From contig CAZQMO010000001.1 in the NCBI GenBank assembly GCA_964594755.1, positions 68,838 to 132,837 on the forward strand: DNA of 64,000 nucleotides, written 5' to 3'. Source of the stretch: an uncultured Candidatus Saccharibacteria bacterium (lineage in GTDB: Bacteria > Patescibacteriota > Doudnabacteria > UBA920). Position 1 is the first letter of the stretch; each line of letters starts with the position of its first letter. A program made the translations under genes and the position numbers. This document shows positions 2,184 to 60,609 of the stretch, in pieces. Below the pieces are notes generated by a model, which searched no databases, was not told the origin of the DNA, and was given only the letters and a program-made list of their open reading frames with translations.

Positions 2184-3222
2184 AGCGGTTCAAAAAGAAA
2201 ATGATGATTGACATGATTCCTGAGATGGCAGATAAGATCCAGAATCGCATGGTAATTTTTGCCTCTGGCCAACCACTGGCTTCTAAGTGGTGATGGATAG
2301 GCGCGGATAAAAAGAATTTTCGTTTAAACACATGTCGCCAAAAGATTTGAATAAAATAACTTAAAGCTTCAATTACAAAAATTAATCCAATTAATGGTAA
2401 TAAGTATACGCTGTTAGTTAGGAACGCTACTATCGCCAGTAAGACTCCTAAACCCATTGATCCCGTATCTCCCATAAAGAACCTGGCCGGATACACATTG
2501 AACCATAGGAAGGCTAGTAAGGCTCCAGAGACGACACCCAGCATTACTGCTAAATCTTCACGGCCCTGCATAAATGCGATTACCATGTAACACAAGAACG
2601 CTAAGAGTAAAACCCCACCAGCTAAACCGTCTAGGCCATCGGTTTGATTGACTGCAAAACTCGTTCCTACTGCAACAAGCAAGAAAAATGGAATGAACCA
2701 CCACCCTAGAGTAATGTCACCATAGAAAGGAATCTGAACAAAATCAAAACCCAATTTAAAATAGAACCACCAGGCTCCGATCATGGCTACGGCTGTATAG
2801 AGTAAAACTTTAAATCGGAATCTAAACCCTCTACCTTTGTGTCCAAGTCGGCGAATATCCAAATAATCGTCCATTAAGCCAACAGTTGCAGCCCCAACTA
2901 AAGCTCCTAATGGGAGTAAAGTTTCTTTTCGCGTTAAGAAATTAAAAATATGAAACTGCTCCAGTCCCAAGAGTCGATCCAGTGACCAAAAAACTACAGC
3001 TAATACTACAGTTGTACCCCAGACAATGACTCCTCCCATAGTTGGAGTACCAGCTTTGGCATGGTGCATATTGGTGTAGAGTGGAGTAGTACCATCATTA
3101 CGGATTTGTTTGCCAAGTCGGTATTTGTAAAGAAACTTTGTAACTAGTGGTGTAATTGCTATGGCAAACAGAAAACTTACCATAGTTAAGCTAAAAATTT
3201 TGATGAGTGATTCAGTTATCAT
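2182..3222 (-). CDS. mraY: Phospho-N-acetylmuramoyl-pentapeptide transferase MraY
   Basis: Polytopic membrane protein with MraY motifs NQTDGLDGLA, MGDTGS and PIHHHLE. Confidence 0.93.
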   Translation of the reverse strand: MITESLIKIFSLTMVSFLFAIAITPLVTKFLYKYRLGKQIRNDGTTPLYTNMHHAKAGTPTMGGVIVWGTTVVLAVVFWSLDRLLGLEQFHIFNFLTRKETLLPLGALVGAATVGLMDDYLDIRRLGHKGRGFRFRFKVLLYTAVAMIGAWWFYFKLGFDFVQIPFYGDITLGWWFIPFFLLVAVGTSFAVNQTDGLDGLAGGVLLLAFLCYMVIAFMQGREDLAVMLGVVSGALLAFLWFNVYPARFFMGDTGSMGLGVLLAIVAFLTNSVYLLPLIGLIFVIEALSYFIQIFWRHVFKRKFFLSAPIHHHLEASGWPEAKITMRFWILSAISGIMSIIIFFLNR

Positions 3223-3276: not shown

Positions 3277-4185
3277 TTAACGGTTCAGAAACTGCTTTCG
3301 TAACTCTAGGGTGTCACCTTCTCGGTCTGGGCTACCAATAACCACAAGTAGTTTTCTGCCACGTTCTGTGTCTAAAAAGTTAATCATCGCACCTAGTGCT
3401 AAATTGGTATACCCAGTTTTTACTGCTCGCAGATCTGGATATTGATTGGCTAGTCTGTTAGTCGCTGAAATAGCGTATTGATTTCCTAATTCACTGACAA
3501 ATCTATATTCAGTAGCTTTTTCTGAATCAGTAAACATACCTCGTTCGTCTAACTTATGTACTAAAATAGAAAGGTCTCTAGCTGAAGAATAATTCACTAC
3601 GCTATCAAAGCCCATGGGATTACTAAATCGAGAATTCTTCATACCAAGTTCTATCGCCTCTTGGTTCATAAGTTCACCAAATGGTAATTCCACTTTTTTT
3701 GCCACGAACCCTCCTAGCACACTAGCAGCATCGTTAGCCGAGCCAATTAGCACAGCACTAACTAGATCTTTTACCCTGATTTTATCACCGGGTTGTAATC
3801 CTAGAACCGGACTCACATTCACAATGTCCCCTGCTTCAACGGTTACCACTTCCGCTGATTGAGAGTGCTCGAGCGCGGTCCATACCGTCATCAACTTGGT
3901 TAGGCTGGCGACAGGTAAGGAATTATCAATCTGCTTCCCCGCAATGATCTGATTTTGCTCATAGTCCAGAACCAGGTAACTAGCTGCTTTAATTCCAGTA
4001 GTATTCTCATTAGACAGCTCATAACTAACTAAGTTGTCTAATTCTGCTTGCTCTCTATCGGTTGCACCTAAAATTTTAATCTGGTTTGTTGGAGCAAAGG
4101 CAGGATCGCTTAACAAAACACTGCCAATCATAGGCAGGAGCAATCCTGCTATGACTGCACTTGATCGGCTGAAATGTTTGTTCAT
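3277..4185 (-). CDS. dacA: D-alanyl-D-alanine carboxypeptidase (S11, PBP5/6-like), secreted
   Basis: N-terminal signal/TM segment plus the SxxK (SLTKLMT), SxN (SAND) and KTG (KTGYT) motifs. Confidence 0.85.
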   Translation of the reverse strand: MNKHFSRSSAVIAGLLLPMIGSVLLSDPAFAPTNQIKILGATDREQAELDNLVSYELSNENTTGIKAASYLVLDYEQNQIIAGKQIDNSLPVASLTKLMTVWTALEHSQSAEVVTVEAGDIVNVSPVLGLQPGDKIRVKDLVSAVLIGSANDAASVLGGFVAKKVELPFGELMNQEAIELGMKNSRFSNPMGFDSVVNYSSARDLSILVHKLDERGMFTDSEKATEYRFVSELGNQYAISATNRLANQYPDLRAVKTGYTNLALGAMINFLDTERGRKLLVVIGSPDREGDTLELRKQFLNR

Positions 4186-25427: not shown

Positions 25428-25760
25428 AAGCTTTAAGCAGGCCGAGCAATCGCCCGCCGCCATGAGCGGCTGGAGGAAAGTCCGGACACTCGAGTTGAAA
25501 GTATCATATGAGCTTTTAACCCTAGTAGCGGGTAACACCCGTCGGGAGTAATCCTAGAGATGCGAACAGTGACGCCTAAGCAGAGATGCAAGGGAATCCT
25601 TCGGGATTAACTTTTGCGGAAACGCAAAAGATGAAACGGCTAAATTCTTACTTGAGTGCAATGCCAAATTTGGTAGGCAGCACGAGCGCCTTGGTAACAA
25701 GTCGCCTAGATAGATGATTGTTTAGAACCAGAATCCGGCTTACGAACCTGCTTGAAGCAA
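25428..25760 (+). ncRNA. rnpB: RNase P RNA, bacterial type A
   Basis: Contains the universal GGAAAGTCCGGAC (P4 5' strand) and AGAATCCGGCTTA (P4 3' strand) motifs. P1 pairs 5' gaagctttaagcagg with 3' cctgcttgaagc. Length is about 333 nt and the region is GC-rich relative to its flanks. Confidence 0.88.
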
Positions 25761-56340: not shown

Positions 56341-57259
56341 GGTTGTAAATTTTCTTATACACGATGATACAAATGCCAAGAATAAAGAGCAGCCCAGCAA
56401 TGATTAAGTTCTGCTTGATTCCAAAGATGATATTGCTGTCCAAACGTAAAGATTCTGTAAAAACTCTCAATAACCCGTATAATATGAGCCACCACACAAA
56501 GATCTGTCCAGAAAACTGAGGGATTTTTAGTCTTTGAGCAAGGCTTGGCCAGTTTACCAAAACCAGTAAAATCAGTAAACTCCCTAGGGCTTCATACAGA
56601 AACAGCGGATGAAAATAGCTAAATTCCCGCCAGGCCAGCAACCGGAACTCCATTGGCACAAACATTTTCCAAGGAAGCAGAGTTGGCGTGCCGTAAGCTT
56701 CATAATTAACTAGATTACCGAAACGGCCAATGATTTGCCCTAACACCAGACTAGGCACAAGCCAATCTAAAAGTTTAAAAAATGGCTGCGATTTGTTCTG
56801 ACTTAACCAATATACCCATAGACCAATTAACCCACCAATCACAGCCCCAATTATTCCTAGCCCGCCCTGCCACACAAACAGAATTTCAATTGGATGGGCT
56901 ACATAGTAAGCCAGTTCGGTAATTACATGATAAAGTCGAGCTCCTAAAAAACCGCCAACCAATAAATATATCGAGACGCTGTCGAGCTGAGTTTTAGTAA
57001 AGCCAAATTTACTAGCGCGTTGGGCCGCCAAATAATATGCTGACAATACAGCTAGAGCTAAAATCAAACCATACCAACGAAAAGACCAACCAAACAACTC
57101 AAGTGATTGTGCAAAAATTATCTGGCCTGGAAAGACCCAAAACAATAAGACCACTAACCAAGCGACACTAAGCCCTGTGATCAAAAGTATTTTTTGTTTG
57201 GACATTGAAGTAGGCCAGTTAGGCTGACTAGAATAAAACAGTTTGTGTGTAAACTCCAA
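56327..57259 (-). CDS. lgt: Prolipoprotein diacylglyceryl transferase Lgt
   Basis: Lgt signature GRFGNLVNYEAYG plus polytopic topology. The start may instead be the internal Met at about 57205. Confidence 0.85.
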   Translation of the reverse strand: MEFTHKLFYSSQPNWPTSMSKQKILLITGLSVAWLVVLLFWVFPGQIIFAQSLELFGWSFRWYGLILALAVLSAYYLAAQRASKFGFTKTQLDSVSIYLLVGGFLGARLYHVITELAYYVAHPIEILFVWQGGLGIIGAVIGGLIGLWVYWLSQNKSQPFFKLLDWLVPSLVLGQIIGRFGNLVNYEAYGTPTLLPWKMFVPMEFRLLAWREFSYFHPLFLYEALGSLLILLVLVNWPSLAQRLKIPQFSGQIFVWWLILYGLLRVFTESLRLDSNIIFGIKQNLIIAGLLFILGICIIVYKKIYNHESQ

Positions 57260-57806
57260 CGCGGCTCTGTGGTTCCTGGCACCTGATAGGAATTTCTTTG
57301 ATTGAAAAGTAATCGCGATAAAGAATCTTTTGATTCTTTAAAGCATGCTCATAAACACCCTTAGTAACTTTTACATCATCCAAGCAATATCGTTTGAGCA
57401 AATCCATTTTGCCGTTTTTGTAATACAGCAAAGCCTCTAAACCATTTCCAGATTTGCCTGTGCCTAAAGTTGCCTGAGCAACTGCTTCTAAGCGAATTTT
57501 ATGGCCGACTACTTTTTCAATTTCCTCCAGAATGTCGTAGGCGGGAATTTGCTGGAGTGAGAAGTTTAGATACGGCTGCAGTACTTCAAAATCAAATTGC
57601 TTGATATTAAATCCAATAATTTGATCAGCTGATTGCAGCAGCGGTGCTAAACGCGGCAATTCATGCTCTTCATAAATTTCATAAATATCACGGGAATAGT
57701 CATAAATCCCGCAAACTGAAACTTTGAGCAAATGATTTTTGCCCCGACCACCGACATCATCAAAAGATTTTTGAGTTTCCAAATCTAAAACTATCTTTTT
57801 GAGCAT
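57228..57806 (-). CDS. RNase H-like fold 3'-5' exonuclease-family protein (DEDD/YprB-like)
   Basis: Motifs IVLDLETQ (Exo I), IGFNIKQFD (Exo II) and YCLDDVKVT (Exo III). Confidence 0.55.
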   Translation of the reverse strand: MLKKIVLDLETQKSFDDVGGRGKNHLLKVSVCGIYDYSRDIYEIYEEHELPRLAPLLQSADQIIGFNIKQFDFEVLQPYLNFSLQQIPAYDILEEIEKVVGHKIRLEAVAQATLGTGKSGNGLEALLYYKNGKMDLLKRYCLDDVKVTKGVYEHALKNQKILYRDYFSIKEIPIRCQEPQSRVGVYTQTVLF

Positions 57807-57925
57807 TTTTTGATTTTGGTTTCTTTTTACTGAACTTTCTTTGCTTTAAGTATATCAGACTTTGAAGCTGATAACCAAAATATCGCTTAATTATGGTAGG
57901 TTTTTTCTGGTTTAATTTTTATGGG

Positions 57926-57954
57926 TTGACAAACGTGACAATAAATGGTAATAT
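57926..57954 (+). promoter_or_regulatory. Consensus sigma-70 promoter (TTGACA -17- TAATAT) at the start of GC-rich non-coding island
   Basis: ttgaca at 57926-31, spacer aacgtgacaataaatgg (17 nt), taatat at 57949-54. Confidence 0.65.
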
Positions 57955-57960
57955 ATTTTT

Positions 57961-58547
57961 ACGAATTCGTTATGGATAGCTGGTGGCTTTGCCGCCTGAT
58001 ATAGATCCTGTCTGATTCAAAGACGGGCCGCAAAGCCCATCCTAACGATAATACGCCAAGACTTGTTGGTCGATGGCGTCGCGGAGTTCGCGGAGCAACA
58101 AGCAGTGCCCCCCGATTCGCGATTCGTAAATACCCTTTTCAGAAATGACTAGGGTGAAAATGGGCGACTAATAATCGTTCATATAGGAGGGTGGGTCCCT
58201 AGGGCTCACCCATCTAAAGACACTTCACAGGAGGACTTTTGGAATGAAACACCGTATTCATGGTCCGCCGGCAACGACACAGAGACAGGGAATGTAAAAA
58301 AAAGATCGTCGACCGGCTCGACCGAAGCCTAATCGGCTTCGGCGCCAAAATAGTGCGACAATCACGTCGCACAAAGGAGAGATCATCATGTACCCATCAC
58401 CCAACTAGCCGCCCCGGCGGCGAAATAATGATCAAAAAACTGATCGGCGGGGCGAGCAATCGCCCCTTAGCAATCATACTTGTTTCCTCCAAGTAGCGAC
58501 CCGGAGTCGCACCCGAGAGCAGTCTAAAAAACTGCTCTCTTTTCTTT
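57961..58547 (+). ncRNA. Candidate large structured ncRNA A (about 590 nt, GC-rich, many GNRA-capped hairpins); identity unknown
   Basis: Runs from the promoter above to the terminator gagagcag-tctaaaaaa-ctgctctc plus TTTTCTTTT (58515-58547). Local GC is far above genome background. All six frames are broken, with only Arg-rich ORFs typical of GC-rich non-coding sequence. Confidence 0.4.
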
Positions 58548-58575
58548 TGACATAAATCTGCAATATTGCTAATAT
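58547..58575 (+). promoter_or_regulatory. Second consensus promoter (TTGACA -17- TAATAT) inside island
   Basis: ttgaca at 58547-52, spacer taaatctgcaatattgc (17 nt), taatat at 58570-75. It overlaps the T-run of the preceding terminator. Confidence 0.6.
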
Positions 58576-58581
58576 GGCAAG

Positions 58582-58796
58582 TAATATTAGAACTTTGAGG
58601 GGGATTAAAATCAAGCGGCCGCAAAAACAACGGCGCACATCGTTATTTGCCGCTAACGTTAGTGCCCTGGTGACACCGCTTGAAGAGGTGCAGGACGGGA
58701 TCATAACCCAATCCCTGTATCTCGATAGGTAGCCACCGATGTGTCTGCCGCCCGAAGCCGCAACTCTTCTCCATCAGGGGTTGCGGCTTTTTTCTT
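58582..58796 (+). ncRNA. Candidate structured ncRNA B (about 215 nt); weak resemblance to SRP-RNA helix-8 motif, unverified
   Basis: Runs from the promoter above to the terminator aagccgcaac-(16 nt)-gttgcggctt plus TTTTCTTTT (58755-58796). It contains ccctggtgacaccgcttgaagaggtgcaggacggg, loosely similar to the SRP RNA CAGG-GNRA-AGCAGC core. Confidence 0.35.
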
Positions 58797-58826
58797 TTGC
58801 CAAAACCTGCTTAATTTTGGTATAAT
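58797..58826 (+). promoter_or_regulatory. Promoter of aspS (TTGCCA -18- TGGTATAAT, extended -10); leaderless
   Basis: The -10 ends 10 nt before the ATG at 58837, so the TSS sits about 3 nt before the start codon. Confidence 0.6.
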
Positions 58827-58836
58827 TTATCAGATT

Positions 58837-60609
58837 ATGGAACGAATACTAACCTCAGAAACTCTCAACTTAGTCGGACACGAAGTCACTCTCGCCGGCT
58901 GGGTCAACAACAGCCGTGACCACGGCGGTTTAATTTTTATTGACCTTCGCGACCACACTGGAATAGTGCAATTAACTATTCATCCTGAACAAAAAGAAGC
59001 TTTTGAAATCGCAGGTTCAGTTAGAGATGAATTCGTTATCAAAGCAGCTGGTAAAGTTGCTGAGCGAAGCAAAGATTTAGTTAATCCAAACCTGCCGACT
59101 GGGCAAATCGAAATTGTAGTTAGCGATTTAGAAATCCTAAACAAGTCCGAAGTGCTCCCCTTCCCTGTGTCTTTCGGCACCGAAGAAGTCAACGAAGAAC
59201 TCCGCTTAAAATATCGTTTCTTAGATTTGCGCCGACCTAAAATGCAATCACGATTGCGTCGCCGAGACCAATTCAATACCAAGATTCGCGAATACATGCA
59301 CGGCCGTGACTTCACCGAGGTCACAACTCCGATTCTTACTTCATCTAGCCCAGAAGGTGCTCGCGATTATTTAGTGCCCTCTCGCCTCCATCCAGGAAAG
59401 TTTTATGCTCTACCACAAGCCCCTCAACAATTTAAACAATTGTTAATGGTCGGTGGCTTACCAAAGTATTTCCAGATTGCACCTTGTTTCCGTGATGAAG
59501 ACCCGCGCGCTGACCGCCATCCTGGCGAGTTTTATCAACTCGACTTGGAAATGGCTTTTGTTGATAGCGGAACACAAGTATTAGAAGAAATTGAACCTCT
59601 AATTACTTCTTTAGTAGAAGACTTTGCAGGCAAGAAGGTTTTGCAATCACCTGCCCCACGCATTCCCTACAACGAAGCCATGGACAAATATGGCAGTGAC
59701 AAACCAGATTTACGATTTGGTATGGAGATGGTGGATTTAACTGACGACTTTAAGAATACTGAATTTAGCGTGTTCGCTACAGCCATCAAAGACGGCGGCG
59801 TGATCAAAGCTATTAACGCTAACAAGGCTGCTAGCTTTTCTCGTAGTCAAATTGATCAACTCACTGAACAAGCTAAACGCGATGGTGCTGGTGGCTTAGC
59901 CTACATATTGTTTACCGAAGAAGGACCAAAGTCTCCTATCTTAAAGTTCATGTCCGAAGCAGAGATCTCTGCTATCAAAACTAAGACCAATGCCCAAACT
60001 GGTGATGCCGTATTCTTTGGTGCAGACGACAAAGCTGTGGTTAATAAAGTTCTGGGTGGCCTGCGTTCAACACTTGGAGATTTACTAAATCTCAAAGATC
60101 CAAATGTAGTTGCTTTGGCTTGGATTGTAGATTTCCCATTGTACGAATACAACGAATCAGAAAAGAAAATTGATTTTTCTCACAACCCATTCTCCATGCC
60201 GGTTGGTGGCTTAAAAGCGTTTGATAATGCTGAACCTTTAGATATTAAAGCTGATCAATACGATATGGTGGCTAATGGTTACGAAATTTGCAGCGGCGCC
60301 GTGCGCAACTACAATCCAGAAGTTATGTACAAAGCTTTTGATATTGTTGGCATTGGGAAAGACGAAGTTAATCAAAAGTTTGGCGCCATGATTAATGCAT
60401 TCAAGTTTGGCGCACCTCCTCACGGTGGCTGTGCTTTTGGCTTAGATCGTTTATTTATGATTCTAGAAAATGAACCAAACATCCGCGAAGTAATTGCTTT
60501 CCCAAAGAATGGTTCGGCGATTGATACCTTAATGGATGCTCCAAGCGATGTTGATGAAAAACAACTCAAAGATTTACATATCAAACTAGACATCCAAACC
60601 AAAAAGTAA
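58837..60609 (+). CDS. aspS: Aspartyl-tRNA synthetase (bacterial type)
   Basis: N-terminal OB domain (MERILTSETLNLVGHEVTLAGWV), class II motifs 1-3, GAD insertion and C-terminal GLDR motif. The track ORF's upstream extension (58741) is unsupported. Confidence 0.93.
   Translation: MERILTSETLNLVGHEVTLAGWVNNSRDHGGLIFIDLRDHTGIVQLTIHPEQKEAFEIAGSVRDEFVIKAAGKVAERSKDLVNPNLPTGQIEIVVSDLEILNKSEVLPFPVSFGTEEVNEELRLKYRFLDLRRPKMQSRLRRRDQFNTKIREYMHGRDFTEVTTPILTSSSPEGARDYLVPSRLHPGKFYALPQAPQQFKQLLMVGGLPKYFQIAPCFRDEDPRADRHPGEFYQLDLEMAFVDSGTQVLEEIEPLITSLVEDFAGKKVLQSPAPRIPYNEAMDKYGSDKPDLRFGMEMVDLTDDFKNTEFSVFATAIKDGGVIKAINANKAASFSRSQIDQLTEQAKRDGAGGLAYILFTEEGPKSPILKFMSEAEISAIKTKTNAQTGDAVFFGADDKAVVNKVLGGLRSTLGDLLNLKDPNVVALAWIVDFPLYEYNESEKKIDFSHNPFSMPVGGLKAFDNAEPLDIKADQYDMVANGYEICSGAVRNYNPEVMYKAFDIVGIGKDEVNQKFGAMINAFKFGAPPHGGCAFGLDRLFMILENEPNIREVIAFPKNGSAIDTLMDAPSDVDEKQLKDLHIKLDIQTKK

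Follow-up and report, generated by a model that had tools for sequence, protein, structure and literature searches.

Two new RNA families in a lineage-variable hotspot of small transcription units upstream of aspS in Saccharibacteria

Results

In the 64-kb stretch of uncultured Saccharibacteria DNA analyzed here (the window; contig CAZQMO010000001.1), an intergenic gap of 1030 nucleotides (nt) at 57807-58836 separates the start of an exonuclease gene (57806, minus strand) from the ATG of aspS (58837, plus strand), the gene for aspartate-tRNA ligase (AspRS). This gap holds two consecutive units, A and B, that are new, lineage-restricted RNA families, and throughout one family-level clade of Saccharibacteria it is a hotspot occupied by one to three terminator-insulated small transcription units that vary with the lineage. 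A fuller reading of this gap, in which unit A is a structured RNA bearing small open reading frames (ORFs) under fold-back control and unit B is a separate small RNA, has in our estimate an even chance of being right.

Two structured units precede aspS

The original prediction, made from the sequence alone, described the gap as unusually long and devoid of an intact ORF, and this held: no ORF in it exceeds 78 amino acids and none of its six longest pseudo-ORFs has a Pfam match above threshold. The GC-rich character was also borne out, since 57955-58798 (49.8% GC) is the GC maximum of the window, where 844-nt stretches average 40.7% (standard deviation 2.3%) and only 0.08% of them reach that value; to call the flanks AT-rich was an overstatement, because they are about 40% GC. 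A consensus scan of the island called promoters and terminators and recovered the two units in succession that had been proposed. Unit A has a TTGACA-17-TAATAT promoter with a TG extension (57926-57954, +) and an intrinsic terminator at 58515-58539, and unit B has a TTGACA-17-TAATAT promoter (58547-58575, +) and a terminator at 58754-58790, with a T run after each terminator. A third promoter, not in the original list, lies before aspS (TTGCCA-18-TATAAT with a TG extension, 58797-58826, +). All three plus-strand promoters match the consensus at 10-11 of 12 positions. From these elements we infer expression of a transcript of about 588 nt from unit A (57961-58548, +), which is further marked out by its fold, homologs and covariation, and of about 217 nt from unit B (58582-58798, +).

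The promoters recur in relatives, whose loci were retrieved through AspRS or exonuclease homologs and are labeled here with L-numbers. The -35 hexamer and the TGgTAATAT of the unit A promoter are kept in L170 with a different spacer, the unit B promoter is kept in L169 and L001, and the hexamers of the aspS promoter are kept, with a variable spacer, in L011, L012, L022, L168 and L169. An equivalent TTGACA-17-TAnnAT promoter, directed at aspS and 50-160 nt from the exonuclease start, is present in 17 of 23 syntenic gaps, many of which carry a second such promoter further along. Folding agrees with the description of the region as highly structured: unit A folds at -222.7 kcal/mol compared with -171.7 +/- 6.4 for shuffled sequences (z = -7.96), and unit B has a z of -3.42 against its shuffles. 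The hairpins and micro-ORFs listed earlier are all present where they had been placed.

Homologs of unit A occur in at least five related lineages, and an RNAalifold consensus on the alignment of the window, L162, L163 and L170 contains 153 pairs, 14 of them compensatory; the L170 copy is 74% identical over 651 nt, including an invariant 40-mer. At the 5' end, a three-way-junction domain (57958-58130, +; 60 pairs, 4 compensatory) is confined to the window, L162 and L170 lineages and is followed by a hypervariable block (58128-58185, +) that is replaced in L162 and L163 and mosaic relative to L170. Because contigs break, or carry an N-gap, just before this block (Logan contigs from three samples end at about 58108 in L164/L165 and about 58050 in L166, and L001 has a 100-N scaffold gap at 3558-3657), several variants of it appear to coexist in populations. 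By eye, the variants are mosaic and neither reverse complements nor the product of A-specific substitutions, and we rejected an origin by inversion or by a diversity-generating retroelement. Downstream are a hairpin conserved in the alignment and in the RNAalifold consensus (GGGUGGGUC...CUCACCC, 58189-58211, +) and an invariant hairpin, GUGCGAC-AAUCAC-GUCGCAC (58353-58372, +), directly before the Shine-Dalgarno (SD) sequence of the second small ORF.

The conserved 3' module of unit A (58442-58547, +) consists of a GNRA hairpin (GGGGCGA-GCAA-UCGCCCC, 58449-58466), UUAGCAAUCAUACUU (58467-58481), an anti-SD-like UUUCCUCC (58483-58490) and the hairpin GCGAC-CCGGA-GUCGC (58496-58510), and is closed by the terminator and its T run. 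A covariance model of this module (CM R1) covers nine lineages, with scores of 121.6 bits in the window, 97-113 bits in L162, L163, L170 and L180, 31 bits in L168 and L059, and 21-23 bits in L184, L190 and L002, of which L190 and L002 are weak matches (E 0.002-0.03). In an alignment fitted to the model, and so with a fitting bias, 89.5% of cells pair compared with 42-54% for slid partners, and compensatory change is seen in 16 of 20 pairs.

Unit B stands apart from unit A as a structured small RNA confined to a narrow clade. Its homologs fall in five distinct lineages (the window, L001, L169, L180 and L189) and together give 58 predicted pairs, 16 of them compensatory. Within the 123-nt core (58605-58727), 90% of cells are paired compared with about 40% when partners are slid, 10 pairs are compensatory, and none of 500 shuffles scored as high. 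The unit B model (CM R2; 132 bits) found the RNA in those five lineages only among 81 sources. Conserved single-stranded or loop elements are GAUCAAGCG, CGCAAAAAC, UGG, CGCUUGnAG and AGGACGGGnUCAU..CCCAA. No riboswitch or small-RNA model matches unit B, its shape is not rod-like as in 6S RNA, and another promoter always lies downstream of it. Unit B probably acts in trans or binds a protein.

The units are swapped among close relatives

The nearest genome records by AspRS are metagenome-assembled genomes of uncultured Saccharibacteria (TM7, Candidate Phyla Radiation). The order exonuclease (minus), long gap, aspS (plus) is kept in a clade with AspRS 65-99% identical to that of the window, with gap lengths of 427-1672 nt; in more remote Saccharibacteria another gene lies upstream of aspS and the gaps are 4-200 nt long. 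The whole gap recurs at 100% identity in one other assembly and at 91% in two more, and its first 244-302 nt are identical in three further assemblies whose contigs end there. Because it recurs in at least five independent assemblies, the island sequence is real and not an assembly artefact. A metagenome scan with AspRS yielded no closer relatives, and an exact look-up of the exonuclease and AspRS proteins of the window gave no record.

Intermediate relatives, obtained by look-ups with exonuclease homologs, show how the content of the gap changes over short distances. L162 and L163 (exonuclease identity 94%) have both units in a gap 91% identical to that of the window. L169 (92%) has a 445-nt gap with unit B only (77% identical), L168 (88%) has only a shorter A-like unit that adjoins the aspS promoter, and L170-L176 (84%) have a full-length unit A, 74% identical over 651 nt, without B. 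In L180 (84%), a short A is followed by B and a third unit; L184 (83%) has a short A only; and L189 (84%) has a different first unit followed by B. Since close relatives hold A only, B only or both, each unit is dispensable, and the gap is a hotspot of swappable units because promoters are found in 17 of 23 syntenic gaps while the unit content varies. Both cassette borders in the window share the junction CTTTTCTTTTG(A/C)C (copies CTCTTTTCTTTTGACATAA and CTTTTTTCTTTTGCCAAAA); the junction from terminator tail to -35 hexamer, CT(C/T)TTTTCTTTTG(A/C)C, is found at 58537-58555 and 58787-58805, and this border is a possible site of cassette gain and loss. A mobile element was considered and rejected: unit A lacks flanking terminal inverted repeats and has only the short direct junction repeat.

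Searches beyond the syntenic clade returned little. Searches of 80 genome loci with units A and B by blastn and nhmmer picked out L005 and L001 only; neither unit has a match in the phage and plasmid collections, and the window itself contains no paralogous second copy. A pattern scan of viral contigs gave no match to a 29-mer of unit A and two to a degenerate unit B motif, on one of which (L188) the unit B model scored 15 bits.

Other lineages have further, unrelated GC-rich units of 450-950 nt bounded by a promoter and a terminator (L180 gap at about 820-1290; the gaps of L002, L003, L190, L191 and L193; L059 1256-2195), for which no Rfam match was found. Some of these have SD-led small ORFs, for example MTNTAWLNSQPFL in L003, L191 and L193 and MKNIKTVFRLFSLHPT in L059.

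The units are not universal RNAs or a decayed gene

The high GC content and strong folding of the island had suggested a highly divergent universal RNA, such as transfer-messenger RNA (tmRNA), signal recognition particle (SRP) RNA or 6S RNA, and would also be compatible with a decayed protein-coding gene; we now consider either origin extremely improbable. At gathering thresholds, Rfam identified RNase P RNA (25434-25758) and four tRNAs in the whole window and nothing within the island. At E<=10 the island gave only chance-level alignments, cyano_tmRNA best, together with terminator look-alikes. The cyano_tmRNA alignment scores 18.6 bits (E = 0.011), far under the gathering score of 70, and contains a 104-nt deletion; ARAGORN found no tmRNA in the window. 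A tmRNA would have a tRNA-like acceptor/T-arm domain and an internal tag frame without an SD, whereas the island ORFs have strong SDs and AUG starts. The SRP, 6S and RNase P RNA models gave no island match at E<=10, the SRP helix-8-like segment suspected in unit B found no support, and unit B lacks the rod-with-bubble shape of 6S RNA. Over the equivalent gaps and loci of 27 relatives, no Rfam family reached threshold in the gaps and only tRNAs did so in the loci. The distribution also speaks against it: L169 lacks A, L168 and L170 lack B, and the covariance models place the units in a narrow clade only. The units cannot be a universal RNA because they are dispensable and swappable, and that proposal is rejected. 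The decayed-gene reading is rejected as well, since there is no Pfam match, no ORF of at least 100 amino acids is conserved across about 25 syntenic gaps, and the base pairs covary. What stands of the original prediction here is a structured, transcription-unit-like RNA island that matches no known RNA family.

Small ORFs of unit A

Unit A contains two SD-led small ORFs, and these micro-ORFs, flagged from the start, turned out to be its most widely conserved elements. SD1 (AGGAGG, 58229-58234, +) lies 9 nt before ORF1 (58244-58297, +), which encodes MKHRIHGPPATTQRQGM and is, with 17 codons, a truncated member of a family that has 30-48 codons in relatives. SD2 (AAAGGAGAG, 58373-58381, +) precedes the six-codon mini-ORF2 (ATG at 58388), which encodes MYPSPN and ends at 58408, its stop adjoining a GC hairpin (58408-58422). 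The SD is lacking before the first start of 36 of 41 long ORFs in the window, and the micro-ORF SDs are conspicuous because this genome rarely uses one. AGGAGG motifs in the window concentrate in long gaps that hold small genes.

Several features suggest that ORF1 belongs to a family of coding ORFs. Relatives L162 (MRNLTIHGPPSTAQTKIREKTIATTGTTEA, 30 amino acids) and L170 (MKMRINSPPGMSQAVRNSVSTTISTTGTSGA, 31 amino acids) retain the reading frame and the C-terminal TTGT..A, with synonymous changes, at 74% nucleotide identity, and the independently called homologs of the L009 type, 46 and 43 amino acids long, differ by in-frame indels. Because of these indels, there is good evidence in the sequences that the ORF1 family is under coding constraint, and the label "non-coding" originally given to the region is probably wrong for unit A. 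A stall-type motif, I-x-G/S-P-P or IRAGP, recurs near codons 5-11, in the forms IHGPP, INSPPG, IRPPN, IWPPS, SPPPG and MGIRAGP-stop. In relatives that bear a T-box (see below), the first unit encodes ORFs of 36-48 amino acids with an MK(N/H) start and IRPPN, IWPPS or SPPPG. In the L180 gap (reverse complement of 1146-2500), a 7-codon ORF behind AGGAGG at about 225-262 reads MGIRAGP-stop and is followed by a mini-ORF encoding MKAVPT. The MGIRAGP of L180 is identical to the C-terminal ribosome-arrest motif of Escherichia coli SecM.

Mini-ORFs of the ORF2 type in many lineages end in Pro-x-stop or in Pro-Thr plus one or two residues (PSPN, PSPT, AVPT, LHPT, LFPT, APTK, SPTE, RPTHI), and a GC hairpin directly follows the stop in each locus examined. 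The Asn at the end of ORF2 and its proximity to AspRS raised the idea of a microcin-C-like precursor, which we rejected: the last residue of homologous mini-ORFs is Thr, Lys, Glu or Ile, and among seven neighbor genes called in the loci of relatives there is no such Pfam family (the window itself was not scanned for one).

Unit A as a proposed fold-back RNA

The RNAalifold consensus pairs GGAGG of SD1 (58230-58234) with CCUCC of the 3' module (58486-58490), about 255 nt away, and the ensemble probability of this helix is 0.63 in the window, 0.42 in L162, 0.91 in L170 and 0.99 in L184. In the mechanism that we favor, ORF1 would be translatable only on the nascent RNA; once transcribed, the 3' UUCCUCC would fold back onto the ORF1 ribosome-binding site and silence it, and the stall motif of ORF1 together with mini-ORF2 may tune which conformation forms. 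The 3' module comprises the GNRA hairpin, GCAAUCAU, UUCCUCC, the second hairpin and the terminator.

Several observations weigh against this reading. The fold-back helix is predicted to be weak in L168 (0.05) and L180 (0.08), and covariation cannot test it because both of its strands are invariant. Few sequences are effectively independent (3-9), and the alignment of the 3' module was fitted to its model. With a z of -6.58 the antisense strand of unit A is stable as well, so that the strand cannot be read from stability alone and is assigned from promoters, terminators and ORFs; the promoters and terminators are themselves consensus matches only. The length of ORF1 is unstable in near-identical copies (17 amino acids in the window, 30 in L162, a 1-nt deletion and frameshift in L163). 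The window copy may therefore be non-functional, or only its first ten or so codons may matter, and the conserved CCG CCG codons could reflect a constraint on the RNA instead. Finally, the complement of the conserved 3' segment of unit A is not enriched in the 64-kb window, where its best site is internal to a gene, and no target or partner was found.

These last results bear also on a different function for unit A, as a mainly trans-acting small RNA, perhaps released from the 3' end, whose single-stranded GCAAUCAU...UUCCUCC seed would pair with target mRNAs at their 5' ends or ribosome-binding sites, while the micro-ORFs served only to load ribosomes that shield the RNA from decay. Of all parts of unit A, the 3' module is conserved most widely, with model matches in nine lineages, and a 40-nt block is invariant relative to L170 despite 74% overall identity; a C-rich motif between two hairpins right before a terminator is the usual layout of a seed. 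In L184 AUG-UAG alone follows AGGAGG, which suits ribosome loading better than a peptide function. However, the window has no enriched complementary sites, an anti-SD seed would have few targets because most genes lack an SD, predictions for four of six homologs place the motif in a cis helix, and L059 and L189 retain the hairpins and GCAAUCAU but lack CCUCC. We regard a trans-acting role as unlikely, though deserving of consideration.

Fold-back control of a small ORF is also known from the hok and aapA1 mRNAs, which encode type I toxins. Like unit A, these have a strong promoter, a terminator, a very stable structured transcript, an SD sequestered by a sequence near the 3' end (a prediction for unit A, where the GGAGG/CCUCC helix reaches 0.42-0.99 in four of six homologs) and a presence that varies from one related strain to the next. 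A type I toxin-antitoxin-like locus, with unit A as the stable mRNA of a small toxic peptide kept in check by fold-back, would fit the predicted long-range sequestration, the strong promoter and terminator, the hypervariability and the variable presence in close relatives. The peptides fit poorly: type I toxins are hydrophobic, whereas MKHRIHGPPATTQRQGM and MYPSPN are hydrophilic, the related peptides are rich in Asp, Gly and Ser, and all are short, basic or acidic and without a transmembrane segment. No antisense antitoxin is evident; the consensus scan saw no minus-strand promoter in the island, although a weak one could escape it. In addition, ORF1 is truncated or frameshifted in copies where the cassette is retained, and unit A of this lineage has features foreign to hok and aapA1, namely a second mini-ORF and a large 5' three-way-junction domain. 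A toxin-antitoxin function is very unlikely on these grounds.

A structured, regulatory-looking RNA that also carries a small ORF is reminiscent of the dual-function small RNAs RNAIII/hld, SgrS/SgrT and SR1/SR1P, with translation a prediction in the case of unit A, but unit A has no sequence or structural similarity to any of them.

Relation to aspS and to T-box leaders

The ATG of aspS lies 10 nt after the -10 box of its promoter and has no SD. The aspS mRNA would thus be nearly leaderless, and neither unit leads aspS in the way a T-box does, because the gene has a promoter of its own. The ATG of several long ORFs of the window follows a TATAAT box by 4-10 nt (e.g., at 3222 (-), 50795 (+) and, for aspS itself, 58837 (+)), which suggests that leaderless mRNAs are widespread in this genome.

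A reduced T-box fills the last 120-270 nt before aspS in 14 related loci (L006 3077-3229, L008 3814-3966, L009 3807-3958, L021 3852-3989, L013 3793-3974, L007 3740-3956 and L059 2249-2490; also L010, L014-L017, L019 and L081). Its parts are a K-turn (GCnAUGA...GAGC), a stem of 4-5 bp with the terminal loop GAC-A or AAC-A, optional Stem II-like inserts, AAGUAAGGUGGCACnGCGCC...AAGCGCCCUUACAAA and a terminator, with Stem I reading GCxAUGAAGC-loop(GAC/AAC)-GCUGAGC. The loop is GAC-A (Asp) in L006, L008 and L009 and AAC-A (Asn) in L007, L010, L013, L019, L021 and L059, and the discriminator-pairing base is UGGC. The Rfam T-box model (RF00230) gives 22 bits in L008, against a gathering score of 93; a clade-specific model (CM R3) gives 50-163 bits in the 14 loci.

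Unit B occupies the same slot as a T-box leader, is about 200 nt long and has its own promoter and an intrinsic terminator. It differs in lacking a K-turn and specifier stem, the AGUAAGGUGGCACCGCG sequence and an antiterminator, and in the separate promoter that stands before aspS. The K-turn/specifier Stem I element is absent from 57807-58836, the Rfam T-box model has no match over the island at E<=10, and CM R3 finds nothing in the window (E<=1) or in any locus bearing unit A or B. The k-mer AAGTAAGGTGGCA, present in 12 of 20 syntenic gaps, is absent from the window. The T-box sequence (..GGUGGNACCGCG..) is likewise missing: GGUGACACCGC of the window lies about 70 nt from the terminator, inside helix P1 of unit B. 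Co-transcription with aspS is not indicated either, as the conserved TTGCCA-18-TATAAT stands between the unit B terminator and the gene. Unit B as a degenerate T-box was rejected on the clade-specific model.

The RNA slot persists even where the AspRS gene has been exchanged. In L170 (344-1648, -) and L184 (624-1928, -), a 435-amino-acid archaeal-type non-discriminating AspRS (an aspartate-tRNA(Asn) ligase; NF003483, about 490 bits) sits between the RNA island and scpA in place of the 590-amino-acid bacterial AspRS. This is an in-situ gene displacement, despite which the A-like cassette stays upstream. A regulatory link of the units to AspRS is possible but not demonstrated.

The strongest form of such a link would make unit A, unit B or both cis-acting leaders that replace the T-box and control AspRS by conditional read-through of their terminators, for example through stalling on a micro-ORF. 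The T-box found directly before aspS in 14 relatives is consistent with this, as are the A-like units that adjoin the AspRS gene in L168, L170 and L184 even after archaeal-type replacement, the Asn codon that ends ORF2 in the window and the Asp plus Asn content of 21-25% in ORF1 of the T-box-bearing relatives. Yet each unit ends in a strong terminator right before a conserved near-consensus promoter, aspS starts almost leaderless from its own promoter, A and B can each be absent, an antiterminator alternative was found for neither terminator, and both T-box models are negative in the island. A leader-peptide attenuator finds no better footing in codon usage: ORF1 and ORF2 of the window together contain no Asp codon and one Asn codon, right before the stop of ORF2, and in the window lineage Asp and Asn are not consistently enriched. 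We therefore judge control of AspRS by terminator read-through to be improbable.

Short regulatory ORFs with proline or arrest motifs are known from mgtL and mgtP (Salmonella mgtA and mgtCBR), from SecM with its GIRAGP arrest sequence and from the pheM-type attenuators of aminoacyl-tRNA synthetase operons. Unit A resembles these leaders in being long and structured and bearing one or two mini-ORFs behind an SD, in its X-P-P or IRAGP motifs, in the stop set against a hairpin and in its place upstream of an aminoacyl-tRNA synthetase gene. It differs in its strong terminal terminator, in a downstream gene with a promoter of its own and in the lack of any antiterminator found; compared with SecM, its peptides are too short for full tunnel contacts, and compared with pheM-type attenuators, cognate Asp or Asn codons are not enriched in the window lineage. 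The strong SDs on stall-motif micro-ORFs of a largely leaderless genome nevertheless offer a testable handle on how epibionts might sense translation status. An ambitious extension of the fold-back reading, to which we assign a low probability, is that A-type cassettes are Saccharibacteria-specific ribosome-sensing devices: in a genome whose other mRNAs would mostly be leaderless and lack an SD, an SD-led mini-ORF with an EF-P-dependent or SecM-like stall motif would report translation capacity by controlling whether the 3' UUCCUCC/GCAAUCAU is locked in cis or released in trans, and the gap would be a recombination hotspot at which such devices, unit B and reduced T-boxes are exchanged.

To our knowledge, almost nothing is known of regulation by RNA in members of the Candidate Phyla Radiation, whose small genomes were thought to leave little room for it, and a search of the accessible literature on non-coding RNAs or T-boxes in Saccharibacteria and the Candidate Phyla Radiation, and on leaderless translation in Patescibacteria, returned nothing relevant. 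Here, two new covariation-supported RNA families stand behind consensus promoters at a position where sister lineages have a minimal T-box. Should the units prove to be ordinary orphan small RNAs, a false tmRNA, SRP or 6S lead would still have been removed and clean annotation models gained for related genomes.

Flanking sequences and other features of the window

The gene divergent from the island encodes an RNase H-like exonuclease of the PF13482 family (57228-57806, -), and aspS (58837-60609, +) encodes a bacterial-type aspartate-tRNA ligase (NF001750, 803 bits). Between the exonuclease start and unit A, 57807-57925 reads by eye as the divergent promoter and 5' untranslated region of the exonuclease gene; L001 shares its first 55 nt exactly, and the remainder is variable. 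Positions 57451-59750 are 100% identical, over about 2.3 kb, to L005 (metagenome-assembled contig CAZQZS010000002.1). The island lies within this block, which reaches into the exonuclease gene (5' part) and into aspS (5' half); beyond both edges identity drops to 50-80%, reflecting either recent recombination between species or co-assembly chimerism. The RNase P RNA of the window (25434-25758, +) is of bacterial class A (120 bits), with segments of 22, 34 and 11 nt, counted in model positions, deleted.

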